IMG/VR virus record: IMGVR_UViG_3300028591_000127 | Coordinates: 1 to 64,000 of that record | Source of the DNA: a virus | Lineage: Duplodnaviria; Caudoviricetes | Length of the DNA stretch: 64,000 nucleotides | Direction: 5' to 3' (one strand) | Shown here: piece after piece, positions 1-18,522 of the stretch | Position numbering within the stretch: position 1 is the stretch's first letter | Layout: every line of letters starts with the position of its first letter | Program-made: the position numbers and the translations under genes | Notes under the pieces: generated by a model | The model's database searches: none | Seen by the model: only the letters and a program-made list of their open reading frames with translations | Told to the model about the DNA's origin: nothing

Positions 1-380
1 TTTTATTTTATTGAATTTATTATTTTATTTAATTATTCAGGGTATATTATTCTATAAGACGAAGTCTCGACCGCGAAGCGGCCTCATCCGTTAAACGAGG
101 GCCTATGTACCGAGTAGGATGAGGAGAGACTGTGTTATTCACCTCGGGCTCAGGTTCTTTCAGCTTTAGATGAAAGGTTCTGTGGCTCCGGGAGGGCGAG
201 GGGAATCACTAGTATATTAATAATTTTCAGTCGTTTCACTCCTTCCATGTCTTTGGTCTCATTACACTTCATTCTTTCCTTCACTCCTTCGTCATTTCAG
301 TCAATCATTCCGTTTCATTCAACAGAAAGCTCTTAGTGGCGAAAAATTTGTGTAACTAAAATGAGCCCGAATCCTTATAT

Positions 381-983
381 TTGATGAAAAGAACAAAGGA
401 ATCCTGTTATTTATGTTTTAATATTGAAGATCCAGAAGAAGAATTGAAATTTCTTTCTATTCTTGAGAAACTTAAAATACCTTATTTTGGTAATCTAGAT
501 GATAGGTTGTGTATAGAATTCGCTGATTATTATATGGCATATTTTTTAGCCAATCATCAGGGAGAAACTGGCCAATTATTTTTATCGAAAATTAGGAAAT
601 ATTCTCAAAATTCAACGCCAGCAAACGAAACAGGTACGGGGGTAATTACAGAATATCATGAAAGGGAAGTTACTAGGTGTGTTTGGCAGGATCCTGAGTC
701 GACAGAACAGGAGGTAGTTGTAAAATCATATGAGCATCTTCCATTAAGCTGTTTCGTTCCTATTATTAATGATAAAGGTTGGTATTCATTCTCAATATCT
801 TCAGTGAGTTCTACTACGATTTCTATTATTAATACTGATTGTATTTGTATTTCTGGTGGTAGTTATTCAAATCTTTGTAACTATTATAGAAGTTTTTCTG
901 ATATTCATAAGTCAGATTTTAATAGCGATAGTGGTTTAATTTTAGAAATCTTAATTATGCGAGGTATCTGTTCCCCTGAGTAA
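381..983 (+). CDS. Hypothetical protein (200 aa), the only sizeable plus-strand gene, directly upstream of the cassette array
   Basis: ORF track; followed by a hairpin and T-run; no motif I recognise. Confidence 0.6.
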   Translation: MMKRTKESCYLCFNIEDPEEELKFLSILEKLKIPYFGNLDDRLCIEFADYYMAYFLANHQGETGQLFLSKIRKYSQNSTPANETGTGVITEYHEREVTRCVWQDPESTEQEVVVKSYEHLPLSCFVPIINDKGWYSFSISSVSSTTISIINTDCICISGGSYSNLCNYYRSFSDIHKSDFNSDSGLILEILIMRGICSPE

Positions 984-1003
984 GGGGGACTTTATTTTTT
1001 TTT
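970..1003 (+). terminator. Intrinsic terminator after ORF 381-983
   Basis: Stem GTTCCCCT(970-977)/AGGGGGAC(983-990), loop GAGTA, then TTTATTTTTTTTT. Confidence 0.7.
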
Positions 1004-1017
1004 CTTGGTATAATAGA

Positions 1018-4000
1018 ACATGTAACAGGTAGTAGCTATCAAATACTTAACTGTTCAGAAGTTAGTAAAATATCTATCTATATTATATATTCTCACGATG
1101 GTTTAATTCATTTTTCTCAAACTGGTCAGCCAACTAAATCTAAACAATACTAACATGTAACAGTAAGTACTTATGGAGATAGAGGGCCTAGTCAAGGGTG
1201 GGCTACAACTCATCCACATAGAGTAGATAATAGAAATGGAATGGTATTAAATAGAGGTGGAGGTGGTTTCCCTAGTAAATCTAACCAATAACTAACATGT
1301 AACAGAAAATACATCTGGAAATAAATGGTCATCCACAGATCAAAGTATAACAAAAGGATTTCTAGTAGTGCTTTCTTATGGAGGACTTACTTCCAGTAAT
1401 TTGACTTTTAAATCTAACCAATACTTATACTACATGTAACAATTAGTATATATAGTCATTGTTCAGGAGAAATGACAAAAAGTCAACCGGTAGAAGTACA
1501 TCAAAGTGAAGGAAAGATTGTATCTCATCAGTCTAGTTGGGATATAGTTAAATCTAACCAATATTTATATATACTACACTACATGTAACAAGTACTAGTT
1601 GGGCTAATGGAGAACCTACCGACCGTAGATCTGCATATCTTATAACTAATTCATATCTAGTTATGCTTGCTCATTCTTATACTCCTAAATCTAACCAATA
1701 CTCGACTAACATGTAACAGGTGACAGATATGCAAGTGTTTTGGAAAACAGTATATATCGTATAATAATGGTTCATCCTAATTCGATGGTAGGAACTTTTT
1801 ATGATCCTGGTAGTTTTGCAAATAAATCTAACCAATATTTATACATACATGTAACAGGTAGTAGCTATTATATATGGGCTAGTGGAGATACAGATAATTT
1901 TGCCAACTTCAGACCAAAAATTTCTATGGGAATAAGTAGTAGTATGACCCTAATGTTTTATCCAACATTACTAAAATCTAACCAACACTTGACTAACATG
2001 TAACAGGAGGTACTAATGTTGGAAGACATAATATAGGTGATTGGTCAAGTATAAGACCTTTTATAGTAAATTTATCTCTTGGTATCGTAAATCCAGGTAT
2101 TAGTACAGTTACTTGGATTAAATCTAACCGATACTTTACTATACTACATGTAACAAGCTATAATCTTCATAGTCATGGTACTACTGAACATGATAAGACA
2201 CGAAATAAATCAGTTCATCTTTTCATTAGTTCTAATCTACCTGCAGGAACATATACAGGAGGAGTAGTAGAATTAATTTATAAATCTGCCCAATACTTGT
2301 TGAGACTTCTATACATACATGTAACAGGAGAAGGAAATTTTGTTTCAGTAGCAGAAAAAAGTAAAACGCTTCTGTATTATATTTGGAATTCAACAGTTGT
2401 AAGTCAGACTGGAGGATCCTGGTGGAGAACTAAATCTGCCCAATACTTTTTACAACATGTAACAGCATTTAGTACTTTCATATGGTCCACACAAGAGTAT
2501 ACAAAGAAAGATGCAGTTAGAGTTTGTCTTGATTCTAGAGGAGTATTTGACAATATCAGTGGTAATTTAGCCTATAAATCTAACCGATACTGACATGTAA
2601 CAACAAAGACACTTATTGGTGATAGTGGTGAGACATCTGGGGTTTATACTATCTATTGTCTGGGTGATAGAGGATATGTAATAATACCAAATAATGGATA
2701 TTCTACTGCAGCGATTAAATCTAACCAATACTTACTAACATGTAACAAGTAGTCAGGAATATTCTAGTTGTGAATCAGCAAAGATAATCCCAATGCAAAG
2801 ACATGGTAATAATGTTTATCCAATGACAAGTTATTCCTATACAGGTTGTTATAAATCTAACCGATACTTAATCTACATACATGTAACAGATTACAATTAT
2901 AAAGTATCTTGTTGTGAAGATTCCGCTATTACTACTTGTAGATTTTTAAGTTTAGGTAGTTATAGTGGAACAGGAGGTATATGTTCTTTAGGTGGTTTTG
3001 GTATAAATCCTATTAAATCTAACCAATACTAACATGTAACAACAGACTGGAGATATAATACATGTGAACACTCAAAGCAATCTAGTTATAATTTTATTTC
3101 GGGTGGACGAATTTATCCAGGCAACGGATATTACAAATCTAACCAATACTTACAACATGTAACAGATAGTATATGGTGTATTGGTGAAAATATTGATGGA
3201 AAACGGGGAGCATATTTTATATCTGGAAGCTTAATAGGTATTTACCATGCTGGTGGGTATAAATCTTACCAATACTTAATCTGCATACATGTAACAGGTT
3301 GGCGAGACTTAGCTCTTCCATGTTGCAATGAATCTAGTAAAAAGATTAATACTATAATTGGTGATAATACAAAAAACATAAGACATGACTGGCCTGGTAA
3401 AATATTAAATTACCAATACATGGACTTACTACATGTAACAGTTTATAACTATGATGGTTATCCTTGGAATGTTTTCTGTTGCTCAGTAGATAAGACAACT
3501 GATAGGTCACATACTTTAGCTATGGGTAATTCACTAAGACCTACAGAAAATCAAGTTAATTTAATTTATTACAGTAATCCTACTGGTCAAAAATCTACCC
3601 AATACTAAAATAATACATGTAACAGGTTATAATCAAGCTAACATTAGATTTAGTGTAGATGAAAATAGTACGGTATATGGTAAGACTGCAGGTCCTTGGA
3701 ATGGTGAGGTAGGAACAAGCGTAGGGAGTATGAGAATATTTAAATCTACCCGATACTTTAAACTAACATGAAATAGGTAGTGTTAATAGAAGATCTTTAA
3801 ATGAGTTAACTAAGGAAAGGTCTAACTTTATTAATGTTTCTAATGGTTATGTTGAAATGAGTGAATATACTGCTTTTAAATCTAACCAATACTTTCCATA
3901 CATGTAACAGATAGTAATAGGTGGCTGTCTGCAGAGCAAAGTGCATCAAGAGGATCTCTAATAGTACTTTCTTCTGGATCATATCTTTCCAGTAGTACTT

Positions 4001-6756
4001 ATAGTAGTACTTCAAAATCTAACCAATACTCATACTACAACATGTAACAGAAGGTATTGGTAGACATAGTAGTTCTTGTGCATCAAAATTATATGATTGG
4101 ACAAAGAGTAATGGTGGTAATCATATTTGGAATGGATTTGCTAATATAGGTAAATCTACCCAATACTCTCTACATGTAACAGGGGGTACTAATGTTGGAA
4201 GACATAATATAGGTGACTGGTCAAGTATAAGACCTTTTACAGTAAATTTATCTCTTGGTATCATAAATCCAAGTGCCTCTAGTGCTGTTAGCTGGACTAA
4301 ATCTAACCAATACTTTTCATACATGTAACAAGTCCAGGTAATAGATGTTCAGCAATAGAGAAAAGTAAAATTTATATCAATTATCTGTGGAATTCCTCAG
4401 TTTGGAATACCTCTGGAGGATCTGCTATGAGACCTGAAAAATCTAATCAATACTAACATGTAACAGATAGTACAAGATCCTCTAATGGAGAATGTAGGTT
4501 CAATGCTTGTTGTACAACTCTTAATAGTATAAATGTTTATGCTTCTTATGCATCTGGAGGACATACATATAAATCTGCCCAATACTTAGTCCCTACATGT
4601 AACAGGTAATAATGGTGTTTCTGGTGAATGTTACCGTACACTAGCTTATAGGACTAATGGTTTTGTATTTTGTGAAAATAACGGACTCAAGGCATATATT
4701 TATAAATCTAACCAATACTGACATGTAACAAACAATTCTGCCACGATAGCTAGTAGTATGGAAACTGGAAGGGGTAATAGTTGGTGTCTATATCAAGGAG
4801 TTAGAAGGGATTTTGTAAGTAAATCTAGCCAATACTGAGATCTCTACATGTAACAGGTACTAGTCAATTTTTTATGGTTTCAAGTAAGGATAATAGTAAG
4901 ACATCATATTCCGTGGTTAATTACTTTGGAAATAGCAATTTTATAGCTTCTGTAAATAAATCTAACCAATACAGGGATCTCTACATGTAACAGATAGACA
5001 ATGGGCTTTTGGAGAACAAGCCAAACCAATGTGTTATTCTATAACATATAATATGATGGTACTTATTCAGCATCCAGGAAATTACAAATCTAACCAATAC
5101 TTACTAACATGTAACAAGCAGTTTCTGTAGAAGTAGTTGTGGAGAGGGTGAGAAAAGAGCTATGCATTGTTTATTCATCAATCTTTATTATAATGATAGG
5201 GGTGATGTATTCACTGCTAGTTATATGAAATCTACCCGATACTGGCAAACATGTAACAGATAGTACTAAGAGATTTAGTCAAGCTGAAGTAAGTAATTTA
5301 TCTGTTTTTTATATTGCTGTTAGTACTGGAATAGTCCATTATCGGGATCCTATCGGTAGTCATCCTTTTTCTAAATCTAACCAATACAGACATGTAACAG
5401 GAGGAAATAGTAATTATTACTTCTCGGGAGCTGGTGAAATAAGTAAAGTATCTCCAGTTAGATTTAAAGCTAATGATCTGTCTATATTCTTTATTGGAGC
5501 AGGAGGATCCTCTAATTCTAAATCTCACCAATACTAACTAACATGTAACAGGTAGTTATAATAGAAGTAGTTGTGGAGAAGGTGAAAAAAGAGCTATGTA
5601 TTGTTTAATTAATAATGGTAGTCAAATAGCCATTGGTTATTATACTACTATTAGTAAATCTAACCAATACTCTCTACATGTAACAGGAGGAAGTAATTAT
5701 CTTTTCATCTGGGGAGCTGGTGAGACGAGTATTGTATCTCCAGTTAGATTTCAGGCTGAATTGTCCATATCATTCACTGGAGGAGGGGAGCCAGTAATTA
5801 TAAATCTAAACAATACTTACACTAACATGTAACAAGTTTTAGAAGTCATGCTAAACAGGTTAATAATGGTAAAATAGATTCGATTGGTAATTCTGCTTCT
5901 ATTAGGGTAGATGGTTTAGCAAATTATAAATCTAACCAATACTACTATAATATACATGTAACAGGTTATAGTCACTCTATGTATTCTAGGTCCTGTATTA
6001 AAGAATATAGTAATTCTCATAGTACACAGGTTTTTCTATATCAAGGAGAAGTTGGTAGTTCTGCACTTGGAGTTGGTTATTCTAAATCTAACCAATACAT
6101 GTAACAGATAGTGGTATGAGTAGAATAGTATTTGCTGCAGCAGGCGATAAATATACTAGTATGCCGCTTCAGTGTAGATCTGAGGGTACTGTTCTTACTG
6201 AATTTGCAGTACATAAGTTTAAATCTAACGAATACTAACATGTAACAGGTAATAGATATAGTCATAGTTCAGGAGAAACTTCAAAAGTTCATCCGGGAGG
6301 AATAGCTATTGGACAAGCAATCGTTTATATTCAGAATGGATGGATAATGAAATCTCACCAATACTAACATGTAACAGTAAGTACAAGAAGATTTAGCTGT
6401 TGTGAAATTTCTAAAATATTAATGTGGTATGTAAATTTAAACAACGGACTTATCTTATTAGGGGCTGGAAATTGTTATAAATCTACCCCATACTTGTTGA
6501 AATTTTTAACATGTAACAGGTAATAACTATGTATGGAGGCATTCTTTGTATGAACTGTCTAAAACTATAATTTATGCATTTTCTTTAGGTAGAGGAGGAT
6601 TTTTTGGTGGTGGAGGTGAGCAAATGAAATCTAACCGATACTTATAACATGTAACAATAGATACTTTGTTTGGTCTTAGTGAAAGTAGTCAGAAACAGAC
6701 CACCTCTCTTTCACTGGTATTAGGAAGAACTAATGTTAATAATAAATCTAACCAAT
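1018..6756 (+). repeat. Array of 41 tandem variable cassettes (alternative C-terminal variable regions for gene 8215-15423)
   Basis: ACATGTAAC starts at 1018,1153,1295,1432,1581,1709,1847,1996,2146,2317,2455,2593,2738,2879,3032,3155,3287,3431,3615,3766(degenerate ACATGAAAT),3900,4040,4172,4321,4456,4595,4721,4846,4983,5107,5249,5390,5541,5676,5825,5954,6097,6238,6367,6509,6647. Each unit ends in an AAATCTAACCAATAC-like motif and translates as HVT-(variable)-KSxxY. Confidence 0.95.
4595..4719 (+). repeat. Cassette 26: exact copy of the variable segment currently in the gene
   Basis: 125/125 identity to the reverse complement of 8259-8383. Confidence 0.97.
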
Positions 6757-6758
6757 GT

Positions 6759-7047
6759 AGGTCTCAACAAGTATCGGTTAGATTTATAACAAGCTTGTCC
6801 AGCCCCAGTTATATTTCCATTCCCCCATAGAATACTCATTTCCACCCGGTTCCTCTCTTTAATGTTCCATACACCATTATTACCTCCTGTTACATGTATG
6901 TATAAGGACCTTAACAAGTATTGGCTAGATTTACTTAAATAATTAGGATTACCATCAGTTGATATCGTCGAACCGGAAAGAGTGCCACGACAAATTACTG
7001 ATACTTCATGAATACTGGTAATTCTACTACCACTTGTTACATGTGCC
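6759..7047 (-). repeat. Two further cassettes in inverted orientation (starts 7044 and 6897)
   Basis: Minus-strand translation AHVTSGSRITS...KSSQYLLRSLYIHVTGGNNGVW...KSNRYLLRP (ORF 6720-7049); same anchors. Confidence 0.9.
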
Positions 7048-7053
7048 ATGAAT

Positions 7054-7098
7054 AAAAAAAAAGAAGTGAAGTCTAGCTTTTACACTAGGCCTCACTTC
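7054..7098 (-). terminator. Intrinsic terminator ending the minus-strand tail operon before the array
   Basis: Stem GAAGTGAAGTCTAG(7063-7076)/CTAGGCCTCACTTC(7085-7098), with a 9-nt U-tract on the minus strand (A-run 7054-7062). Confidence 0.75.
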
Positions 7099-7102
7099 CG
7101 GA

Positions 7103-7345
7103 TCAAGAAATTATGACAGATCCATACATTATATTTTTAAGTTGTCCATCATTTCCCAAAATAAAGTACAGGTATTTGTCTATGGGTTCTTCTGGTATTG
7201 TTTCTGTTACCTCAATGCCCACAACGCTTTTAGAGATTATTCCGAGATTTGATATTTGTTCTATTCCGGTCTCAATATTATTCAGTTTTTCTGCGTCGAT
7301 TGGTGTATTTCCGTCGACCCATTTAGTTTTATTATACTCTATCAT
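7103..7345 (-). CDS. Small phage tail-associated protein (80 aa)
   Basis: YNKTKWVDGNTPIDAEKLNNIETGI resembles a motif common in phage tail/baseplate proteins; ATGA overlap with upstream gene. Confidence 0.6.
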   Translation of the reverse strand: MIEYNKTKWVDGNTPIDAEKLNNIETGIEQISNLGIISKSVVGIEVTETIPEEPIDKYLYFILGNDGQLKNIMYGSVIIS

Positions 7346-7668
7346 TTTTTACCACAGATAACTTTTCCACAAGTACTATTACCACAGATGGCGGGGCAGA
7401 TTTTAGTTACGCTAAGTATTTGAAGATCTTTTAGGTAGAATTCTTTCCCATTAAGTCCCTCCAGTGTTACTACCGTGACTCCCCGTCCTGTTTGTGTTTC
7501 AATTTTTATTTTGACGTCTTTAATAAGGAACACTTCATCGGTTGGCACGCCCCAGGATCCTGTTCCTACAGCTTTAGACGTAATTTTTGCTGTTCCCCCA
7601 ATAAGATTCCCATAGTTCCAGTTACCATAGGGTGAGGTATTAGCTAAAATTTTATTATTCTTCATCAT
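7342..7668 (-). CDS. Hypothetical protein (108 aa) with Cys-rich C-terminus
   Basis: ORF track; overlaps both neighbours in the operon. Confidence 0.6.
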   Translation of the reverse strand: MMKNNKILANTSPYGNWNYGNLIGGTAKITSKAVGTGSWGVPTDEVFLIKDVKIKIETQTGRGVTVVTLEGLNGKEFYLKDLQILSVTKICPAICGNSTCGKVICGKK

Positions 7669-8146
7669 AGAGGTTATCGATCCATTCGTCCAATTTATCT
7701 TTATCGTCCCAGCAATTTTTCAGGCAATCGTCAATAAAGTTCGAGTATTCATTTCTGAACTGGTAATATTCTTCTTGTGTTTCGAACTTATATCTAGTAT
7801 TATCTCCGAGTCTAATTTCCGGCAAGAATTGTTCGTTTTCTTTCACGGCATCATAGTTTCTTTGATAATTGATCTGATTTTCTGTTGATAGCCAGACCGG
7901 GTGTGTTTTCCATGTGAATCCCTCTAGTATATTCTGGTCGCACCTATCATTGAGGTAGTTTTCTAGTCTGGTTTTTATGGTTGTTTTGTCTGGTTTTTGG
8001 CCTTTAAACAGAAACTCAACCCAGGACCACCCTTTATCAGCGTTTTCCAGAACATCATAGGCCAGTACAGTATAGATTTGATTTCCAACCATAAAATGTT
8101 GAATCTTATCTGGTTTCTTTTCTGTGCTATAAATTCTTTCTATCAT
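7655..8146 (-). CDS. Putative tail-fibre assembly/chaperone protein (DUF4376-like); paralog of 16014-16514
   Basis: ILEGFTWKTHPVWLSTENQINY matches ILSGFTWRGKSVWLSAENQRNF; lies directly downstream of the adhesin. Confidence 0.6.
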   Translation of the reverse strand: MIERIYSTEKKPDKIQHFMVGNQIYTVLAYDVLENADKGWSWVEFLFKGQKPDKTTIKTRLENYLNDRCDQNILEGFTWKTHPVWLSTENQINYQRNYDAVKENEQFLPEIRLGDNTRYKFETQEEYYQFRNEYSNFIDDCLKNCWDDKDKLDEWIDNLYDEE

Positions 8147-8214
8147 TTTGTTATGGTTTTAAAGGGGATTAGGGAGAGTTTGTCTATTTCCCTCCCTTTC
8201 CCAGATTAAGTTTA

Positions 8215-11200
8215 CTATAGTTCAGGCCGCCAGTAGAAAGCTGCCACAGGTCTCAACAAGTATTGGTTAGATTTATAAATATATGCCTTGAGTCCGTTAT
8301 TTTCACAAAATACAAAACCATTAGTCCTATAAGCTAGTGTACGGTAACATTCACCAGAAACACCATTATTACCTGTTACATGTGCCCCCCAGCCGACTAC
8401 GGAGGCTGATCCCACCGCTTGAGCCCTCCTTACCAGGATGTGGTAGATAGGCCTAACTGGTTCGGGTAGTGCTTCGAGGGTAGATATCCTCATATTGCCC
8501 ATTTCGTTTTTATTGAAGTAGGTATCATTTCTTGAGGTTCCATTATTGTTGAGCCACCATTGCCTACATATTTCCCCCAGGTCAGGGAGGTACCACTGCC
8601 CCCGCTTGAAGAAGCTTGAGCGATTCGAGCCCGCCCCTGTTGTAGGTTCCCACTGTCTACACTTCATAAATGCTGGATAGAACATAAACTGATAAGCAGC
8701 ATTACCGTTATTAGTTAATTGCGCCGCAGGCCAAGACTGTTGGTATTGCGTAGTATATGTAGTTGGTGTCATATCTTTGAAGTAGTAAGAGGACATATTC
8801 TCTTCCCACAGATCAGTTGTGTCATCATCTGAGGGTCTAATGAAAGGATATTTTTCAGCCCATCTTCCCTGTTCACCTTCACGTCCTGCTGTAGTATCAT
8901 CTTTACTTATCCATTGAACAGCACCAGAATCAGGATTAGTGATTGTGGTTCTAGCTAAGACATATTCAAAGAATTTATAGACTTTATCAGCTACAGTATC
9001 GGTAGCAATTTGTCCTGGATTTCTATATTTTGTCTTAGTGGCGACATCAATAGAGGTTGAGTAAGTCATTGTTCCGTTAGTATTGGAAGCAGCATTTAAC
9101 CAGCCAGCGGTATAAGGATTAGCGTAGGCGACATTATTAGGATTAGGTAGCCAAACTCTATTACCCTCGCCGTCGGTCATTTCCATATTACTAGCTGACA
9201 TAGTCCAGTTAGAACCGCCAATAGTACGTGAGGATCCTGCTAAATTAGAATTAATAACTTCAACGCTACCGCCACCTGCTCTATAGGGTGTAATACCGTT
9301 ATAGATGGCATTATCGAGTGTTGCAGCGGAAGAGCTAATAGTTTCATCAGACAGTCCTAGCCTATACATCGAGTTAACGTAGGTAGCAAAAATAGTATCG
9401 TATCCACTATTATTGCCTGGTCCCCAATAATCAGAGCCGATTGAGTTATAGGCATCAACTCTAACATCATAGATTTCAACACCTTCTCCAGCATTTTGTC
9501 TAGTGGACATAAATACAACACCAGTTAAGATTTTACCTGTACTATACTTATCATCACAGCAACCATCATTCCAAGCAAAGTCCCCTACTTGTGGTGCTCT
9601 CTTAAAGAATCCAATAATGACATCGAGTTTTGTCGTTCTATTCTCGACTGGAGTATTACCAGTAGGATCAGTTCTGACAATGCTGACTCTCAGACAGAAA
9701 CGTCTTTGCTGTTGGTCAGGAGACTCAAGGAAGTTAGGATTATTCAGAACATTAGCAGAATCAAACTCCATTGTTAAGGATTGCTGGTCTGTTATAGTTA
9801 CGAGACCACTAATAGAGGTTGCAGTGTTGGCTCCAGTTACTCCAGACTCAGAATTAATAACTCTCGGTGCATATTCAGAAGAAGAATCCTCAAAATCTTG
9901 GTGAATATAAACACTAGTATCGTCATCCTCCACTGTTAAGAAGCTCCAAGTAATAGCAGGTTTTCCATCAATAATATCGAAGTCATTAAAGTTTTCGGTA
10001 GGTGGAATAATGCTACCTCCTTGATAAATATACTTTGTTACACCACCGACAGTCTTAGTAGTCAGAAGATTACCATAGATAAAGTTAGGAATACTAATTT
10101 CACCTCTAACACCGGGAGACCATCCATTATTACCTCCAGAGTAGATTTGGTGATCAACGTAGAGAGGGTTATTAATATCTGTAATATCTCCATATTTATT
10201 AATCAGTTCAATCTTCTCTGCCCACTTAAGATATCTATAACCTACTGTTGAATTTGCCTCATTATCGTGGAGATAGATTTTGCCACTAAAGGTTGTTCTA
10301 GCTGATAGTGTTGAATCTCCAACTTTAGCGTAGTAGCAGAGAACGTCAGTACTAACTATCTTATTAGTACTACTTCCCCATCTAACATTAATAAGGTTAC
10401 AGTTTTCAAGTGGCGGTACTCCTTCTCTAGTTTTATCTCTATAAATGTTATAAGCAATATTATAGGTACTAAAGACAGCCTCATTCAGGTTTCGTCCGTT
10501 AATAGTTAGGTCTGTTAGGTTTGGATATCCCGAATAGGTTTCAGCTCCAACAGTATAATCGATGGCCTGGAAGGCGAAGCTAGTGATATTAGGTAGATCA
10601 GAGAGACTAAGTGTTGTCAAGGTTCCTGGCAGATATAGTTCAGTCAGAGTATCCGTTCTAGGTAGATTAACTTGGCTTAAGTTAGTTCCTCTTAGGTCTA
10701 GTTTCTGGAGTCTATATTGTTCAGTAAAATTACCTACACCACTAATACTGCTAACTCCACTCAGATCAAGAACTTTTATGAGTTTTGTATTTTCGGTTAT
10801 ATTAATATTGGTAGGTCTAAATACTAAGCCATCACCAGAAGCATCAAACTCAACAAGTCTTTTACCATTGAGAGTAAAGGTGGCATTTGGGTCTGTTATG
10901 AATCTATTGAAGGATCCCAGCTTTCTATAATAGTTAACACCGCAAAGAGCCAGAGTAGTGTCACCGGATACAGTACCAATAACAAATGGTAAGGGATTTT
11001 CTGTTTCACCTACTATCTTAATAGGCATACCTTGTGCATCGACTCTCCAACCTCCAGGTGCAAGTCTTACGTTATCTGTTACCACTGAAGAGCCAAATCC
11101 ACCCGAGGGATAGAGCCATTGATGTGGAACAAGGTTGAGTACTACTTCCAAATTACTGAGACCGCTAGGCATTTGACCAGTTCTAACACTGAGTGATCCT

Positions 11201-14200
11201 GAAGCAGCAGCACCAGAGAATTCTCCATAGGTACAATATGATGAGAGGTAGATAAGTCTTCTCTTCATAAATTCCTTTTCAGCCTGGAGTTGATCACCAA
11301 GAGACTGAGTGATAGGCATAATACCGGGAGGGTCGAAGGTACCCTGTTCAGTGGCAAGTTGAGCTGTTTCGTATCTGATTTTAGCAGTCTCGTTAAAAGC
11401 AATTGCAGGGAAGTATTCCTGAATATTATAGAAGTATTTTTGACAGCAACCACACACAGAGGTTTCAACTCCTCCAGTAGCAAGAGCTGTCATTCCTGCC
11501 AAGATACTAGACATCATACTCTGCAATCTCGAGTTAGCTTTTCTATCGGTTACTTGATTAGCACCAGTTCCAATACCGTAAGCTCTTTCAATGAGATCTT
11601 GGAGAACGTTAAACTGTCCTTCCCAGTGAGTACCAGTGGGATTACCTTGGATATCACGACCCATAATATCTCTCTCTTCAACCCAATATGGTTTACTTTG
11701 CCAACCTACATTATTAGTTCTGATAATAGTATCAAGGTCGTCCTGTGATAGAGTTATCTTACCAGTACCAGGATCAACAACGTAATAGGTATTCTTAGAT
11801 CTATTATCGGTTCCAGCAATCAGCTTAATAAATTCGTGATGGAAGAGAAGGTCATTAAGAACGAAGAAAGATTCAACATTCAATGCCACTCCATACTTAG
11901 CCTGTGAAACGTTACCAGTTTTAAAGTCCTCAATAATGGCACTTATAATCTGATTGTTTGCTGTTTCTACTGAAGAGGATAGTGTGAGATTCCATCTAGT
12001 ATTAACTTTTACTTCTTGCCATTCTCCCCAAACAGGTCTAGTAATATTATAAGTGTTTCCTCCCCAAGTTACAGATGCGGTAGCTGTACCTGTTACGCTA
12101 CGATATGTGGATCTAACCCACTTTCTTTGAGCATAGTTATATCGATATAGATTATACTGTGAACTTGGTGATTCAATATACTCTGAGTCATTTGAGTCAT
12201 TAGTCATCCAATAACAATAGCTGGTATTGATAGGATCGTATTCAGTATTTTGTGAAGGATCCTCTGTCCAAGCTCTCAGATTAGCTATTGTATCTTCCCA
12301 AGGTTTAATAAAGCAGTTATGTTCGTATAACCAGTTCCATGCATTCTTAATGTAACGCTCAGCTGATAAGGTACCAACAGTTTCTTCCGTTTCAAGCTCT
12401 TCCGGATAAGGTAGCTCTTCACCAGACGTATTAACCCAGGTATTACCCGCATCGAAATTAATATTTTTCAGACCATTATAATAGTAACACTCAGCGTCGG
12501 GATTATAAGTAACTTCCTCATTCCAGGGCACTCTCATGTCAGTTAAGGGATTATTATTATCTGCTCCCTCAAACATACCAAAGAGTTTCATAGCCTTATC
12601 ATAACCCCAAGTTGGTTTATCCATCTTACCAGGTCCAAAGGTACAGAGTCCTTGGAATACTGGCTGGGCATCCTCCGGCGTCTGAACAAAGTAGAGGAAA
12701 GGAAGTTCATAAACAGCAACACGGGCCTTAGAATTAGTCTTCATTATCGTATTACCGTCACTACTCGTCAGACAGATACGCCTATATAGATCATTATATA
12801 GGGCGGTAGCACCAGCTTTATGAGACTGCATTGAAGAGGCGTAATTAATCTTACTAACCAATTTCTTAGCTGCAGGGATATCACTGGTCATGGCGTATTT
12901 CTGACCTACTTCCTCACCGTTCAAATTAGTAAATCCTCCAGTTTCACCTTTCCATTGCCACTGATTATTCCACTCGTAATATGTCTTGGCTGTAGTACCC
13001 TGACCCTTCATTGTAAGTTCAGTCAAGGTTCCAGAATGGTCTTTATCTTGAGTATAGGTACCATCAGCATTTTTATTGACAATACTAATCTCGAGATAAC
13101 CTTTTTGGTCCTGTTGTGTTGCTGCAGAGTGATTACTTACATTATAACCATGCCAGAGTAAGCAGTTATATTGTTCTTTAGCAAGTGAATAATTGATATA
13201 ACCATTAGCAGTAATACTATTAGCTACTTTAAAGGCCTGTTTCTGAATTGCTGAAGGTAAGGATGACATATAATCCTGCTCAACATCACGACTACTAAGG
13301 CCTCCATAGCTACCAGTATAAATTCTAATTGAATAAATATCAATATCAGCATCGGGAGCACCAATTCTTATACCACCATGACCACCAGAGCTAATAAACT
13401 CATTTGCAGAACTATTATTAAATTTAAATTCGCGATTAATAACACCATTAATAAAAACTCTACCATAAGGTACTTCACCCGAGTTACCAGCCAGAGATCT
13501 TACATTATGAACAACGTTAAAGGCAATATGTGTTCTAACATCTTCTTGCCAAGCGAAGTTTTGCTGTTTCTCTGAGGTATTGCTAGTAGTCATGAATACA
13601 CCCTCTAGCGGTTTAAGTTGAATACCTTTAGTACAGTTTCCATTAGCATCTTCTTCACAGATTCTGAAAATGGGAGTATCTTCATCTGTTATATTACTAA
13701 CCATGAAATCTACTTCAATAGTTACATCAGAATTACTATCCTCAGCTCCTATATATTGTCCAAAAGGTTCATAGTCAATAGTAACATATCTATTACTTGG
13801 GACTCTCAACACTGTTTGTCCTACGGATCCTGTTACGCTATTAGTATCTTTAATCCAGCCATCAGAAGTCCAGTTAAATCCTTCAAAGTTTGCTGATACT
13901 GGTTGGCCATTAGCAGCATTGATAATTGTAGCTCTATTTTCTGCTGTTTCTGAATTACTTCTAGATTTTGGATTTAAGATAAAGGATGCGTGAGCTGTAG
14001 GGGTAAAGTCTTCTGAGTTCTCTACGACAACAGGTATTCTATTTCCAGTAAAACCTGACAACATATTGGATCCTTCAATATCAGTAGCTCTCAAGTAGGT
14101 CTGTATAGTTCTAAGGACTTTCTCTTCAATCTCAAGAGTATTGTTAAAGGTATATTTCGTAAGAGACTGTGCAGCTGTTTGTTCAAAGGTAAGATACTCA

Positions 14201-15423
14201 GTTGATCCAGTACTATTACCAAAAGCAAATCTCACATATCCCTCATCGTTGCTGGTCGGTCCACAATAAAGGGCATACCTAAAGAAATCGGTAGCTACGT
14301 AATTAGATGCTTGACTGACACAATTTTGAATTAATAATCTAGGAACACCATCATACTGGGACTCATCATTATCATCATAATTTCTCTGAACCATGACCTG
14401 ATTAACAACCCTGGCTGATTCTTTAGAAGGATCACCACTAACAGAAAGCCAAGCAGTAATAGTATGAACGCCATGACTTAATAGGAACTTCTTTTGACTT
14501 TCATTAGAAGGTTCTGTATATGTGTAGATGTATGGTGTCTCTAAGTATGAAGTAGTTCCAAGACCTATTACTGTGATTTCTTTAGTACTTGCAGTGCTTC
14601 CAGGACTGTCCATATCACCAGTAGAAGTTGATATTTGAATATGAAGATCCTTACCAACTGCACCCCCAATATAATAGCGGAAGAGATATGTATTATGGTC
14701 AGTGTCTGATCCGTCCTTCATACCAATAATAGGTCTTTCCCAATTGCCAGCAAACTCAATACTAAGTGTTGTTTTTGTTATACTACTAATCTGAACGGCA
14801 TTAGAGCTTGCTTGCATATCATCATTATTGACATTGACAATAAATCTCATCTGATATCCTACAACATCAGCGTCAACGTATTCAGAAATGTCATAGGTTT
14901 CATAATCATTCTCATCATCAATACTGGCTGAATTTATATTTTTTGACGCCTTTAGAACCCAAGATGAATTACTAGAAGTACGACCATAAATATTAAGGGT
15001 GCCAGTAACAGGGTTATCTACTGGTGCTGCATCAGCCTCCTTAAGTGTTGATGTAAATCTAATACTTGCTGATACCATTCCATCAATACTAACAATAGTA
15101 CTCGGGGTATCAACAAGCTCCAATTTAAGAGTAGTAACGGTAGCACCTCCACCGCCACCACCAGCAGCAGGGAGTACGATGTTTTCTAAGATTAAATTTG
15201 TCTTAGTAGGATCTCCCACCCACTCTTCATAATCCTCTATTGATGCGAAGGCCAGCATGTGATATTGGTCGTCGCTCCCCTTTTCTGGTTGTGAAAAGTA
15301 TCCAATTTTATTATCCTTATGATCTTTTAGGTACCTCTTTATAAACTCTTCTACACTAGTTCCGGCATAGTTTTCCCAAGAGGTTTCAAAATCAGGGATT
15401 AAAGTATTTATAATATCTGCCAT
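8215..15423 (-). CDS. Large putative adhesin/tail-fibre protein (2402 aa) with LamG-like and LRR-like segments and a C-terminal CLec-fold domain; expression locus of the cassette array
   Basis: Paralog of the DGR target (KINYASSMQSHK, GTDNRSKNTYY); C-terminal WYLPDLGE...HVT...KSNQYLLRPVAAF. Confidence 0.85.
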   Translation of the reverse strand: MADIINTLIPDFETSWENYAGTSVEEFIKRYLKDHKDNKIGYFSQPEKGSDDQYHMLAFASIEDYEEWVGDPTKTNLILENIVLPAAGGGGGGATVTTLKLELVDTPSTIVSIDGMVSASIRFTSTLKEADAAPVDNPVTGTLNIYGRTSSNSSWVLKASKNINSASIDDENDYETYDISEYVDADVVGYQMRFIVNVNNDDMQASSNAVQISSITKTTLSIEFAGNWERPIIGMKDGSDTDHNTYLFRYYIGGAVGKDLHIQISTSTGDMDSPGSTASTKEITVIGLGTTSYLETPYIYTYTEPSNESQKKFLLSHGVHTITAWLSVSGDPSKESARVVNQVMVQRNYDDNDESQYDGVPRLLIQNCVSQASNYVATDFFRYALYCGPTSNDEGYVRFAFGNSTGSTEYLTFEQTAAQSLTKYTFNNTLEIEEKVLRTIQTYLRATDIEGSNMLSGFTGNRIPVVVENSEDFTPTAHASFILNPKSRSNSETAENRATIINAANGQPVSANFEGFNWTSDGWIKDTNSVTGSVGQTVLRVPSNRYVTIDYEPFGQYIGAEDSNSDVTIEVDFMVSNITDEDTPIFRICEEDANGNCTKGIQLKPLEGVFMTTSNTSEKQQNFAWQEDVRTHIAFNVVHNVRSLAGNSGEVPYGRVFINGVINREFKFNNSSANEFISSGGHGGIRIGAPDADIDIYSIRIYTGSYGGLSSRDVEQDYMSSLPSAIQKQAFKVANSITANGYINYSLAKEQYNCLLWHGYNVSNHSAATQQDQKGYLEISIVNKNADGTYTQDKDHSGTLTELTMKGQGTTAKTYYEWNNQWQWKGETGGFTNLNGEEVGQKYAMTSDIPAAKKLVSKINYASSMQSHKAGATALYNDLYRRICLTSSDGNTIMKTNSKARVAVYELPFLYFVQTPEDAQPVFQGLCTFGPGKMDKPTWGYDKAMKLFGMFEGADNNNPLTDMRVPWNEEVTYNPDAECYYYNGLKNINFDAGNTWVNTSGEELPYPEELETEETVGTLSAERYIKNAWNWLYEHNCFIKPWEDTIANLRAWTEDPSQNTEYDPINTSYCYWMTNDSNDSEYIESPSSQYNLYRYNYAQRKWVRSTYRSVTGTATASVTWGGNTYNITRPVWGEWQEVKVNTRWNLTLSSSVETANNQIISAIIEDFKTGNVSQAKYGVALNVESFFVLNDLLFHHEFIKLIAGTDNRSKNTYYVVDPGTGKITLSQDDLDTIIRTNNVGWQSKPYWVEERDIMGRDIQGNPTGTHWEGQFNVLQDLIERAYGIGTGANQVTDRKANSRLQSMMSSILAGMTALATGGVETSVCGCCQKYFYNIQEYFPAIAFNETAKIRYETAQLATEQGTFDPPGIMPITQSLGDQLQAEKEFMKRRLIYLSSYCTYGEFSGAAASGSLSVRTGQMPSGLSNLEVVLNLVPHQWLYPSGGFGSSVVTDNVRLAPGGWRVDAQGMPIKIVGETENPLPFVIGTVSGDTTLALCGVNYYRKLGSFNRFITDPNATFTLNGKRLVEFDASGDGLVFRPTNINITENTKLIKVLDLSGVSSISGVGNFTEQYRLQKLDLRGTNLSQVNLPRTDTLTELYLPGTLTTLSLSDLPNITSFAFQAIDYTVGAETYSGYPNLTDLTINGRNLNEAVFSTYNIAYNIYRDKTREGVPPLENCNLINVRWGSSTNKIVSTDVLCYYAKVGDSTLSARTTFSGKIYLHDNEANSTVGYRYLKWAEKIELINKYGDITDINNPLYVDHQIYSGGNNGWSPGVRGEISIPNFIYGNLLTTKTVGGVTKYIYQGGSIIPPTENFNDFDIIDGKPAITWSFLTVEDDDTSVYIHQDFEDSSSEYAPRVINSESGVTGANTATSISGLVTITDQQSLTMEFDSANVLNNPNFLESPDQQQRRFCLRVSIVRTDPTGNTPVENRTTKLDVIIGFFKRAPQVGDFAWNDGCCDDKYSTGKILTGVVFMSTRQNAGEGVEIYDVRVDAYNSIGSDYWGPGNNSGYDTIFATYVNSMYRLGLSDETISSSAATLDNAIYNGITPYRAGGGSVEVINSNLAGSSRTIGGSNWTMSASNMEMTDGEGNRVWLPNPNNVAYANPYTAGWLNAASNTNGTMTYSTSIDVATKTKYRNPGQIATDTVADKVYKFFEYVLARTTITNPDSGAVQWISKDDTTAGREGEQGRWAEKYPFIRPSDDDTTDLWEENMSSYYFKDMTPTTYTTQYQQSWPAAQLTNNGNAAYQFMFYPAFMKCRQWEPTTGAGSNRSSFFKRGQWYLPDLGEICRQWWLNNNGTSRNDTYFNKNEMGNMRISTLEALPEPVRPIYHILVRRAQAVGSASVVGWGAHVTGNNGVSGECYRTLAYRTNGFVFCENNGLKAYIYKSNQYLLRPVAAFYWRPEL
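8259..8383 (-). other. Exchangeable variable region (expression site) within the adhesin gene
   Basis: Bounded by the same two anchors as the array units; identical to cassette 26. Confidence 0.9.
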
Positions 15424-15436
15424 AATTTATTAAAAA

Positions 15437-15631
15437 TCAATTTCCTTTCCATCCTTCTTTTCCAAGCCAAGGTTTAGCACCAACCCAATGACCTGAACCA
15501 AAGCAGGATCTTATGCCTTGCCAAATTAAAACTGCACCTCTATATACGGCGGTAGCAGTGTATTGAACAAACTCTCCTCCAACGATTTTCCACCAGTGTA
15601 TAGAGACAGTTTCTTTATTTTTTATAATCAT
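15437..15631 (-). CDS. Small Trp/Gly-rich protein (64 aa) preceding the adhesin
   Basis: ORF track; ATGA overlap with upstream gene; SCFGSGHWVGAKPW. Confidence 0.65.
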   Translation of the reverse strand: MIIKNKETVSIHWWKIVGGEFVQYTATAVYRGAVLIWQGIRSCFGSGHWVGAKPWLGKEGWKGN

Positions 15632-16002
15632 GACTCCTCTTCGTAGATGTAATAGAGTGTATTTTCGTCTTTTGGAGTAAGAGCTTCATATTCAGCTTCG
15701 GTTAAGTAGACTATTCTAATCTCTGAATCATAAAATATCTTTAGATCGTTAAAGTGATCTGTACCATTACCTACTTTATATGCATCATAAACTCCATTAT
15801 TTTGTGTTGAGACCCTAATAGTAACTCCATCTCCATAGATCTTATTCTGAAGTGTCAAAAAGTCTAGGTTGCCCTTAATAGGTAGAACTGCACTTTGAAC
15901 GAAGTCTTTTATATTATTACCATTATCATCAATAACAGCTTCAACGTGAGTTCTAGGAGCAAAGACATTACCTTCAGAATCCTTTAATTGTCGAATATTC
16001 AT
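15628..16002 (-). CDS. Small tail-fibre-associated protein (124 aa)
   Basis: YKVGNGTDHFNDL and LTEAEYEALTPKDENTLYYI resemble motifs seen in phage fibre proteins. Confidence 0.6.
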   Translation of the reverse strand: MNIRQLKDSEGNVFAPRTHVEAVIDDNGNNIKDFVQSAVLPIKGNLDFLTLQNKIYGDGVTIRVSTQNNGVYDAYKVGNGTDHFNDLKIFYDSEIRIVYLTEAEYEALTPKDENTLYYIYEEES

Positions 16003-16013
16003 TGCTATTTTAT

Positions 16014-16514
16014 TTATAATTCTAAACTATCTACCCACTTGGTTGCTGCATCTTTATTCCGCCAGCCTTCATTGAGTGTTTGATTAATAAATTCTACTCC
16101 TTGCAGATAAAATTCAGTAAGATCTTCTACGGTAGTGAATTCATGATAGATCGGCAATTTATGTTCATCCTCACCAATCTTAAAGGTTATTGGCAGAGAA
16201 TCACCATTAGTAATCATCGCCGCTCTTTGCCCTTCTGAAAAATTACGTTGATTCTCAGCTGACAACCATACACTTTTCCCTCGCCATGTAAAACCTGATA
16301 GGATCTTCTTATCAGTCTGAGAGTCGATATCAACTAGGAGCGCATTAAGAATATCATCTTTTGTTACAGACCCACTTGTCTCTATAGTAACACTAATAGC
16401 ACTCCAAGTTCCGTCTGGATTCTCTTTAGCATCATAGTTGATAGTAGTATATACTGTTCCTGGACCAAAAGATTTTATTATGGTGTCCGGTTTCTCTGAA
16501 AATGTTTCCATCAT
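16014..16514 (-). CDS. Putative tail-fibre assembly/chaperone protein (DUF4376-like); paralog of 7655-8146
   Basis: Shared GFTW..VWLS.ENQ.N motif. Confidence 0.6.
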   Translation of the reverse strand: MMETFSEKPDTIIKSFGPGTVYTTINYDAKENPDGTWSAISVTIETSGSVTKDDILNALLVDIDSQTDKKILSGFTWRGKSVWLSAENQRNFSEGQRAAMITNGDSLPITFKIGEDEHKLPIYHEFTTVEDLTEFYLQGVEFINQTLNEGWRNKDAATKWVDSLEL

Positions 16515-17926
16515 AATTTTAATTTATATTTCTTTTTTAATTTTACTATCTCATATGGCCCGACAATGTACATTTTCTCCCAGAAGCCCATTCCCATCTT
16601 GTCAATAGCTTTTCGTCGTTTTCGATAAGTTCTTCTTCTCCGACAGAATCCAAGATATGAGTTCATAACGCACTCTACATACCGGCAGTCTGCTGGGGTC
16701 ATATCTCCCTCTTTCATCAACTTATCAATGTCTTGAAATCTTTTTCTCATGTGTCGAATAGTTCTATTACTAAGATATAGTCTTCCGGGTTTAATATACG
16801 TTCCAACAAACAATACTCCGTGAGATACTGGTTGAAAATATCTCTTTTCTTTATGCATTGTCAGCCCTAGTTTATCTTTTAAGAAATTTTCTATTTTAAA
16901 AATAGATTCTTTTAGAAACTTTAAATCATCACTTACCAGAATAAAGTCATCAACAAATTGTGCTACACAATAATTTTTACCACGAAATAGCCAATGTACA
17001 TAGCTGATGAAGTGAGACATGAGAAAGTTAGCAAATAACTGAGTAGTAAGGTTGCCAATAGGAAGTCCTGTTTCCATAGTAAATAGTGATTTACGAGGAT
17101 TTAACTCATTCCACCATTCTGGAGGTGAGTTTATAATACAGTCTTTTTCTGGGTGATGCATTACAACCTCACGAACTAAGTATAGTAAGAGATTCTTATA
17201 TTCACCGTTATACTTCCGCTTTATAAATCGCTCCAGTAGGCACCAGAGAAGATCTTTATTGATGGACATAAAAAATCCCTCTAAGTCCCCTCTAAACACC
17301 CATGCTGGACGGCGATAATTGTTGGAAATACTTCGCATACCTTCTGCTACGTGTGTTACGGCTTTGTCTGTCCCAAACCCTTTGCGACAATTAAAAGACA
17401 CATTACCTTGTGATTCAAATCGTTTTTCAAACAATGGAGTTAGTCGAAGGGCTATCCAATGGTGTACGATTCGGTCTCGGAAAGAAGCTGCAAAAACTTC
17501 TCGCAGTTTTGGGTATTTAACTAGGAAGCAGGTAGATGTTCCAGGCTTATAAGTACCTTCCCACATTTCATTTGCTAAAACTGGTATATCTACGTTCGCT
17601 TTAGTCATATATTCAACAGCTTGTGCAGAGCGCATCTTTCCACGAAGACAGTCATGGTATGCTTCCCATACAGAATTAATAAAAGATTGTGGCACGGGAT
17701 AATCGGTAAACGCTGAAACAGCCCAAACAACGTTCGAGTTGTACTTATTGTTGTTGTTGTTCACGGTACCATTCTGGAAGTTGACGTTCCATGCGTTCGT
17801 AGCATTGTTCTCGGAACACGACCAGAAGTTACTGTTTCTATGCGACTCTGCAACATAGTAGCTGCCACACTTTTCTTGTGAAGCAGCGAGTCGCCCGTTT
17901 AGCGGATTATATGACACTCTAATCAT
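16511..17926 (-). CDS. DGR reverse transcriptase (ORF includes the TR at its 5' end; alternative GTG start near 17695)
   Basis: REVFAASFRDRIVHH, CRKGFGT, GDLEGFFMSI, GLPIGNLTTQLFAN, FVDD; adjacent TR and Avd. Confidence 0.95.
   Translation of the reverse strand: MIRVSYNPLNGRLAASQEKCGSYYVAESHRNSNFWSCSENNATNAWNVNFQNGTVNNNNNKYNSNVVWAVSAFTDYPVPQSFINSVWEAYHDCLRGKMRSAQAVEYMTKANVDIPVLANEMWEGTYKPGTSTCFLVKYPKLREVFAASFRDRIVHHWIALRLTPLFEKRFESQGNVSFNCRKGFGTDKAVTHVAEGMRSISNNYRRPAWVFRGDLEGFFMSINKDLLWCLLERFIKRKYNGEYKNLLLYLVREVVMHHPEKDCIINSPPEWWNELNPRKSLFTMETGLPIGNLTTQLFANFLMSHFISYVHWLFRGKNYCVAQFVDDFILVSDDLKFLKESIFKIENFLKDKLGLTMHKEKRYFQPVSHGVLFVGTYIKPGRLYLSNRTIRHMRKRFQDIDKLMKEGDMTPADCRYVECVMNSYLGFCRRRRTYRKRRKAIDKMGMGFWEKMYIVGPYEIVKLKKKYKLKL
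17706..17836 (-). ncRNA. DGR template repeat (TR)
   Basis: 131 bp aligning without gaps to 18542-18672 with 15 mismatches, 14 at TR adenines (coding strand); AAC-rich. Confidence 0.95.
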
Positions 17927-18360
17927 AACAGACTATAATTACCCTGGCCATTGTTATAATCGCGCAACGCTATTGCTTGTGCAACGATTCCACGTGCCAC
18001 TTTCTTTATTTTATCTTCTACTGGTTTTCCTATTAGTCCTTTACGGAATAATATGTGTATATCGTCTTGGACATCCTCAACGAAGATCCGCACCATGTTG
18101 AGATATTCAACTCTCTGACTGGGGTCATATACAGAGTGGGATAGTCCAATACATTTTTTAGCCTCGCTTACTGTCAAAAGAATACTATCTATGAATTTTG
18201 TTAGTTTACGAGGCACTAAGTCATATAAATTAACAATATTATATTTTAATTCAATCGCATCTCGATAGATAGACATTTGTCGTAAAGTGCGATGATTTCG
18301 CTTTTTTGAATTGCTAGCCTCTACAATTTCTTGAGGAATTATTACGCCTTTCTGTTCCAT
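17923..18360 (-). CDS. avd: DGR accessory variability determinant (Avd-like four-helix protein)
   Basis: 145-aa basic, helical-looking protein located between target gene and TR/RT. Confidence 0.75.
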   Translation of the reverse strand: MEQKGVIIPQEIVEASNSKKRNHRTLRQMSIYRDAIELKYNIVNLYDLVPRKLTKFIDSILLTVSEAKKCIGLSHSVYDPSQRVEYLNMVRIFVEDVQDDIHILFRKGLIGKPVEDKIKKVARGIVAQAIALRDYNNGQGNYSLL

Positions 18361-18482
18361 AGTGCTTCAAGAATTCCATTTTGTTCAGAAATAATTACTT
18401 TATTAGATGGTGTCCCGTAGGATTCACTTCTTATTTTCTTTTTGTTAATATCTACTGACATCAAATTAATAGTTTTTAAAGC

Positions 18483-18509
18483 GGACGACGGCTAACAAAG
18501 CCGCCATCC
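18483..18509 (-). promoter_or_regulatory. Hairpin downstream of the VR (candidate DGR target-recognition stem-loop)
   Basis: GGACGACGGCT-AACAA-AGCCGCCATCC imperfect inverted repeat about 14 nt past the stop codon. Confidence 0.5.
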
Positions 18510-18522
18510 ACAAAGCAAAAAG

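Follow-up and report, generated by a model that had tools for sequence, protein, structure and literature searches.

The DNA analysed here, referred to as the window (64,000 nt, positions 1 to 64,000 of IMG/VR record IMGVR_UViG_3300028591_000127), belongs to a 109-kb contig that represents the structural part of a jumbo myophage, with sheath and tube matches and a CheckV value of 29%. The phage genome is about 312 kb in size, and capsid relatives that are 60–78% identical are found on contigs of up to 400 kb. The window contains a gene for a 2402-aa tail or adhesin-type protein and a neighboring array of short, silent cassettes that share two sequence anchors with a loop near the C-terminus of that protein. 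One homologue of the 2402-aa protein is labelled Candidatus Cryptobacteroides, and on this basis a Bacteroidales host is inferred to be likely. The features of the locus, in window coordinates, are as follows.

384–983: ORF of 199 aa that precedes the array and is conserved in a related strain, with no known domain
970–1004, plus strand: terminator-like hairpin and T run directly before cassette 1
1018–6759, plus strand: main array of 41 cassettes of 113–176 nt, oriented opposite to the gene, with linkers of 0–19 nt
4595–4719, plus strand: cassette 26 (c26), the putative donor twin, with a 10-nt left anchor, a 99-nt variable body and a 16-nt right anchor; 41 codons without a start or stop of its own
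6742–6787, no strand assigned: tail-to-tail junction of the two sub-arrays, with a hairpin (z −3.8) made by two right anchors
6770–7044, minus strand: co-oriented sub-array of cassettes m1 and m2, with a full 19-nt linker and gene-like flanks
7054–7098, minus strand: terminator-like hairpin and T9 between an 80-aa gene and m1
8215–15423, minus strand: expression locus for the 2402-aa tail or adhesin-type protein
8259–8383, minus strand: expressed loop, an exact match to cassette 26, covering residues 2348–2388 of the 2402-aa protein

The 2402-aa protein belongs to a large family of ~2000-aa DGR targets, most members of which end in a canonical DGR variable region. The expressed loop occupies the position of this variable region, between the region of a conserved acidic residue and the Lys that precedes the last strand. 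Pfam Lcl_C is matched by 12 of 16 aligned family C-termini; the 2402-aa protein itself has no Lcl_C match, and the AlphaFold model is unusable (pLDDT 40) and leaves a lectin fold unconfirmed. Both the lectin fold and the receptor-binding role of the loop domain are inferred by homology, without binding data.

The ends of the 109-kb contig carry a 198-bp inverted repeat (97%; window 4–201, genome 108874–109071). Its assignment as a genome terminus was rejected, since an ENA contig of the same phage continues past it into a 700-aa gene; similar genes of 684–702 aa occur in relatives. The repeat is likely to be a dispersed repeat or the end of a mobile element, and the whole 109-kb structural block could conceivably be invertible. 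Dozens of small genes with a similar basic leader (e.g. MIILR..K.FS) are located at genome positions 64000–106000 (L001–L003), and also occur in relatives.

Architecture of the cassette array

The array is composed of 43 mutually unrelated, start-less cassettes, 41 on the plus strand and two (m1 and m2) on the minus strand, with bodies ranging from 87 to 150 nt. Each unit opens with a 10-nt left anchor, ACATGTAACA, and closes with a 16-nt right anchor of consensus AAATCTAACCAATACT; only one gene in the 109-kb contig carries these anchors. The left anchor contains a 6-bp palindrome and is invariant in 41–42 of 42 cases, and in the right anchor the first six bases are the same in all 42. This invariance extends to synonymous sites, and the AAA codon of the anchor does not vary (42/42). 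Right-anchor variation consists mostly of AAC to NNC and CAA to CGA changes. The adenine bias of this variation was considered as proof of a DGR origin and rejected, as the cassette bodies show no such bias.

All 43 bodies are stop-free in the frame of the gene, compared with 1.9 in shuffles, and the anchor-to-anchor frame is kept in 39 of the 41 main-array cassettes. The few decaying units are c17 and c34, which are frameshifted, c2, which has a stop in its anchor, and one unit with a stop in a related strain. Some cassettes are near-duplicates (c8/c23, 87% identical; c32/c34; c30/c33).

The 19-nt linker of the co-oriented units opens with the bases that follow the anchor in the gene itself, and in related strains this sub-array holds five units instead of two. 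The shorter linkers of the main array resemble deletion products of this full linker, and the co-oriented sub-array (6770–7044; L084, L086) may be the entry point of new cassettes. The linkers of c26 are eroded, to 8 and 1 nt. Terminator-like hairpins stand before both sub-arrays. A TATAAT-like hexamer (~1009–1014) directly precedes cassette 1 in the coding sense; promoter-like matches around the array start are at chance level. The 199-aa ORF upstream was rejected as an enzyme because none is recognizable, and it resembles this clade's family of small tandem paralogues.

Some contigs raise the possibility of transcription. An array ORF (window 1785–2003, P0318) is also present on a separate 2,900-bp JGI contig, and if that dataset is RNA, the array is transcribed. 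Another JGI contig (L087), from a dataset that we take to be a sheep-rumen metatranscriptome, ends one base after the terminator T run (window 7053), as an RNA-derived contig would. If L087 is RNA-derived, transcription covers the gene with loop 26 but stops short of m1.

Two identical copies of loop 26

Window 4595–4719, which spans c26, is the exact reverse complement of 8259–8383 at 125 of 125 positions, and the first bases outside this tract mismatch on both sides. The twin is the longest inverted repeat within 1–20000 and the sole exact repeat of more than 33 nt within 1–26000. Read in the coding sense, it contains 42 adenines, 29 of them between the anchors, and none is changed. The second-best cassette is ~60% identical to the expressed loop, and the median cassette–cassette identity is 50%, the level for unrelated AT-rich DNA under the alignment used. 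No cassette other than c26 shares a match longer than 14 nt with the expressed loop, which corresponds to one entire donor and lacks the segmental mosaic structure of vls-like systems.

These comparisons uphold a sequence-only reading of the window in its claims of a 125/125 twin, of great divergence from the other cassettes and of about 40 unchanged adenines, the exact count being 42. Two of its claims held only in part. Identity was said to stop at the anchors; the flanking bases do differ, but because the anchors are common to all cassettes, this shows only that the transferred tract ends somewhere within them. The transfer was also said to be recent, which can be stated only relative to strain divergence. 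Orthologous cassettes are 79–100% identical between strains (mean ~91%), and the twin is likely to be younger than typical strain divergence (mean ~9%), though the c18 orthologues are 100% identical too. The proposal of non-reciprocal copying or exchange between sister genomes fits the data. A reciprocal swap within one genome is disfavored because it would leave no twin, and here the donor is retained after transfer, with one copy in the array and one in the gene; exchange with a sister genome would look alike.

An assembler could in principle have borrowed one copy from the other, since this is a short-read metagenome contig with many short repeats. We checked both copies against independent assemblies rather than raw spanning reads, and the result supports two real copies. 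The Logan assembly of SRR8436538 (k = 31) breaks inside the loop from either side: the contig downstream of the 2402-aa gene starts at window 8288, 30 nt inside the 3′ end of the loop, and the upstream contig truncates the gene to 2356 aa, ending at 8354–8356, ~30 nt inside the 5′ end. A break 30 nt inside a repeat is a k − 1 signature, and the far end of the downstream contig obeys the same rule, lying 30 nt inside an unrelated 33-nt repeat. The k − 1 breaks at both ends of the twin therefore indicate that the reads contain one sequence flanked in two different ways.

Other assemblies agree. The ENA contig (ERZ27256846, 311,995 bp) encodes an identical 2402-aa product, and its spacing from the 80-aa gene to the 199-aa gene across the array is 6,120 nt, as in the window. 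In JGI contig L087, 119 nt of the loop run on into the unique 3′ flank of the gene at 100% identity. Because the shared anchors, at 10 and 16 nt, do not reach k, any join would need real junction reads. The Logan, ENA and JGI assemblies possibly derive from one sample, and no raw spanning reads stand behind them. Even so, an artefact is all but excluded, and the two identical copies are real.

Related strains and the direction of transfer

Related strains are represented by short contigs from four other runs (L084–L086, L089, L187–L190), with flanking genes 97–98% identical. The four strains keep the order of the array and have gained or lost whole cassettes at internal positions. One lacks c4, c7 and c8; another (SRR14586338/SRR14597535) lacks c7, c8 and the block c20–c34, c26 included, and carries additional units in five places within the array. 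Members of the c7 and m1 families are found in either orientation among strains. Because strains differ by whole internal cassettes, there is no leader-end polarity, as the sequence-only reading had supposed. The end polarity of CRISPR-like or integron-like arrays is likewise absent, the twin being unit 26 of 41, and an Rfam search gave no match.

The 15-cassette block c20–c34 (window 3766–5817) holds most of the near-duplicates (c23~c8, c21~c3, c30/c33, c32/c34). A degenerate anchor stands at its start, as would be seen if all of it had been imported together from another array.

Comparison of 20 orthologous cassette pairs reveals 192 transition-biased differences, of which 83 involve no adenine. 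None creates a new stop, compared with 7.7 expected (0/400 simulations). The pN/pS ratio of the cassettes is 0.65, compared with 0.87 ± 0.14 in a neutral simulation and 0.08 in neighboring genes. The pN/pS result is marginal (P ~0.04), and the 20 pairs are not independent.

Cassettes without starts and with variable linkers can stay stop-free only by passage through the gene, and flow from array to gene must therefore occur. Such flow in general is likely, as inferred from stop avoidance and from the eroded linkers of c26. For this particular event the direction stays unsettled, as the sequence-only reading had held; it is the overall flow that we now favor as array to gene.

Some evidence favors the opposite order of events, in which the loop originated in the gene, as a mosaic or by acquisition from another phage, and slot 26 received its copy later, by overwriting or insertion. 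The linkers of co-oriented units carry gene downstream bases, as if captured from the gene, and near-duplicate cassettes exist. The first 14 nt of c26 are shared with m2 (P ~0.013), the unit with gene-like flanks, a match that hints weakly at a mosaic or at flow from gene to array, and c26 lies within the block that another strain lacks. However, c26 looks less like a fresh archive because its linkers are eroded, whereas the co-oriented units keep the full, gene-like 19 nt. Under archiving alone the cassettes should also decay neutrally; the avoidance of stops means that flow to the gene must take place as well. We consider archiving as the origin of the twin unlikely.

Switching of the expressed site rests on one loop and is not directly observed. 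No orthologue of c26 is present in the strains seen, where the block c20–c34 is absent. Searches with the gene C-terminus and the anchor junctions (IMG/VR, JGI metagenomes, GTDB and INPHARED) returned no second expressed loop, only single chance matches, though near-identical records may be missing from the collections searched.

No array was found in seven to eight capsid relatives examined whole or nearly so (G001–G004, G008, G015, G018, G019). The array thus appears lineage-restricted here, because these more distant relatives lack it. Homologues with odd loops (P0024, P0004, P0001) also have no array. Two apparent matches were rejected: the L102 repeat is a coding leucine-rich repeat, and P0305, which seemed to carry cassette 36 within a longer protein, is an unrelated, mis-clustered protein. 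In G014, a related jumbo phage, a homologue of 2502+ aa (G014:C1 81480–88987, L092) could be the target of a DGR or of an array, and is uninformative as its contig ends inside the variable region. The closest capsid relative, G001, has a different DGR (L118 9174–11881) located among replication genes, with a 330-aa reverse transcriptase (RT), a 135-aa gene and a 333-aa target.

Proposed mechanism of loop transfer and relation to known systems

Adjacent to the expression gene lies a DGR that serves as an internal control. A tandem 2119-aa paralogue is followed by a gene in the Avd position, a template repeat and an RT.

16511–17926, minus strand: DGR reverse transcriptase of the ordinary Bacteroidales type; the control system
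17706–17836, minus strand: DGR template repeat, matching the paralogue's variable repeat only and no cassette
17923–18360, minus strand: 145-aa gene in the Avd position, assigned by position and size, with no profile match
18542–18672, minus strand: DGR variable repeat of the 2119-aa paralogue, with 14 of 41 template adenines changed and one other change

With the first ATG taken as the start of the RT frame, the template repeat falls within its 5′ part, an overlap that several relatives share.

The two paralogues differ sharply in their adenine signatures. The DGR has changed 14 of 41 adenines in its own target, compared with 0 of 42 in the twin (Fisher p = 1.3e-5). With the anchors excluded, 0 of 29 adenines are changed in the twin (p = 2e-4), and the context-weighted chance is ~3e-8. 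Bacteroides DGRs mutate ~50% of available positions (10.1101/2024.11.15.621889). Mutagenic retrohoming is therefore an unlikely origin of the twin, and the earlier claim that the transfer does not look adenine-mutagenic is supported by this control.

Another alternative is faithful RNA-templated copying, in which a plus-strand array RNA in coding sense would be copied by the DGR RT, or by another RT encoded in the ~200 kb outside the contig, without adenine errors. An RT and an Avd-position gene lie 8 kb from the loop, the TATAAT-like hexamer stands immediately before cassette 1 in the coding sense, the right anchor varies mainly by AAC to NNC and CAA to CGA changes, and the 2,900-bp JGI contig with P0318 is possibly RNA-derived. 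Against this, the paralogue carries 14/41 adenine changes made by this very RT, whose 29 relatives, among them those that share its FVDD motif, have ordinary template and variable repeat pairs and no array. The cassettes lack a template-like AAC bias (third-position C is 6%, compared with 42% in the template repeat), and the anchor AAA codon is unvarying (42/42), unlike RT errors. Phage DGRs carry a hairpin downstream of the variable repeat. The paralogue has a strong one after its variable repeat (18481–18511, z −4.1), whereas only a weak hairpin (z −1.4) is found ~55 nt from the expressed loop, and promoter-like matches are at chance level. The DGR RT is probably not the copier, and error-free RT copying in general seems unlikely.

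A two-site recombinase of the shufflon or integron type could act between sister genomes, the twin being the recipient half of a reciprocal event. The anchors are fixed at synonymous positions and the left one contains a 6-bp palindrome, cassettes are gained and lost as whole units, and the tail-to-tail junction looks like an inversion relic. However, no tyrosine recombinase was found by a search limited to PF00589, without serine recombinases, in the 109-kb contig, outside which lie ~200 kb of genome, or in five relatives, and no recombinase gene adjoins the array. Inversions within a single genome would leave no twin, and the left and right anchors are unlike each other. This explanation is very unlikely.

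The reading that we prefer, with moderate confidence, is one-way conversion of the whole loop at the DNA level, bounded by the anchors, or an equivalent exchange involving sister genomes. The occurrence of the same anchors on gene and cassettes, their fixation, the stop-free cassettes, the gain and loss of whole units at the anchors and the absence of an adenine signature are shown; the array-to-gene direction, a DNA rather than an RNA intermediate and the receptor-binding role are inferred. The 99-nt loop would be copied whole from array to gene between two short fixed anchors, with the donor staying in place. A nascent or single strand may switch template at one anchor and return at the other, for which the inverted layout, with a distance of 3.5 kb, would be favorable. 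Alternatively, the loop may be gained by a double exchange when a sister genome is present in the infected cell. The inverted layout would also avoid loss of the three genes between gene and array. Each switch would exchange the ligand-binding loop of a lectin-like tail domain for a pre-selected, unrelated loop. Homologies of 10 and 16 bp are short for general recombination. RecA and RecT profiles had no match in five relatives, and an SMC/AAA gene lies ~3 kb beyond the array on the ENA contig.

A bolder reading also remains possible, in which a dedicated phage factor swaps whole unrelated loops using 10 + 16 bp and writes successful loops back to the array. This factor could be a new anchor-recognizing recombinase, or an RT that is error-free on array RNA. 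If this reading is true, the locus would be a curated, two-way library of receptor-binding loops, and would join DGRs and shufflons as a diversification system of a new class.

The layout most closely resembles silent-cassette systems of bacterial pathogens. Borrelia burgdorferi vls consists of vlsE and 15 silent cassettes (PMC11756760). Both systems have one expression site, a contiguous silent array inverted relative to that site, short direct repeats (17 bp in vls) that bound the variable part and separate the cassettes, one-way transfer with the donor kept, and an inverted repeat between site and array. The vls cassettes are ~90% identical to vlsE and donate segments of variable length, whereas the bodies here are unrelated and 87 to 150 nt long, and the single event seen copies a whole loop with only 10 + 16 bp and two different anchors in place of one repeat. 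The products also differ, a phage tail protein here and an immune-evasion lipoprotein in vls. Switching in vls depends on RuvAB and MutL. Treponema pallidum tprK, with 53 silent donor cassettes (PMC10063172), likewise uses dozens of short, clustered silent donors that are transferred non-reciprocally into variable loops of one site. There, seven variable regions receive segments from donors ~175 kb away; here, one loop lies 1–7 kb from its donors, in a virus.

On the features compared, the locus qualifies neither as a DGR nor as a shufflon. DGRs (BPP-1; Bacteroides, 10.1101/2024.11.15.621889; PMC12875486) also have a C-terminal lectin-type target and an unchanged template, and an RT and Avd-position gene lie nearby here, but serve their own repeat pair in the tandem paralogue. 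Instead of one AAC-rich template there are 43 unrelated donors of variable length, with no adenine mutagenesis, no template matching the loop except c26 and no strong hairpin after it. Shufflons and tail-fibre invertons (Rci/PilV, Mu Gin; PMC9881135) resemble the locus in their silent alternative ends, short conserved sites and inverted layout. They undergo reciprocal inversions of single-copy variants, usually with a recombinase nearby, whereas here an internal loop is replaced, the variant is present twice, the donor stays and no recombinase was found.

Copy-and-paste cassette switching is known from bacterial pathogens; in the literature searched, we found no paper on a phage silent-cassette array and no description of such switching for viruses. 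Among evidence from a single genome, the twin makes the strongest case for the array as a working donor library. Here the array and the DGR serve two paralogous tail proteins of one genome, and the mutagenic DGR provides a built-in control for RT copying. The exact replacement of ~100 bp via anchors of 10–16 bp would also merit attention from the viewpoint of recombination mechanisms. Two routes of phage receptor switching are known, point hypermutation (DGRs) and reciprocal inversion (shufflons), and cassette copying would be a third. Wholesale copying of pre-selected loops that vary in length and sequence would allow jumps that are impossible for a DGR.
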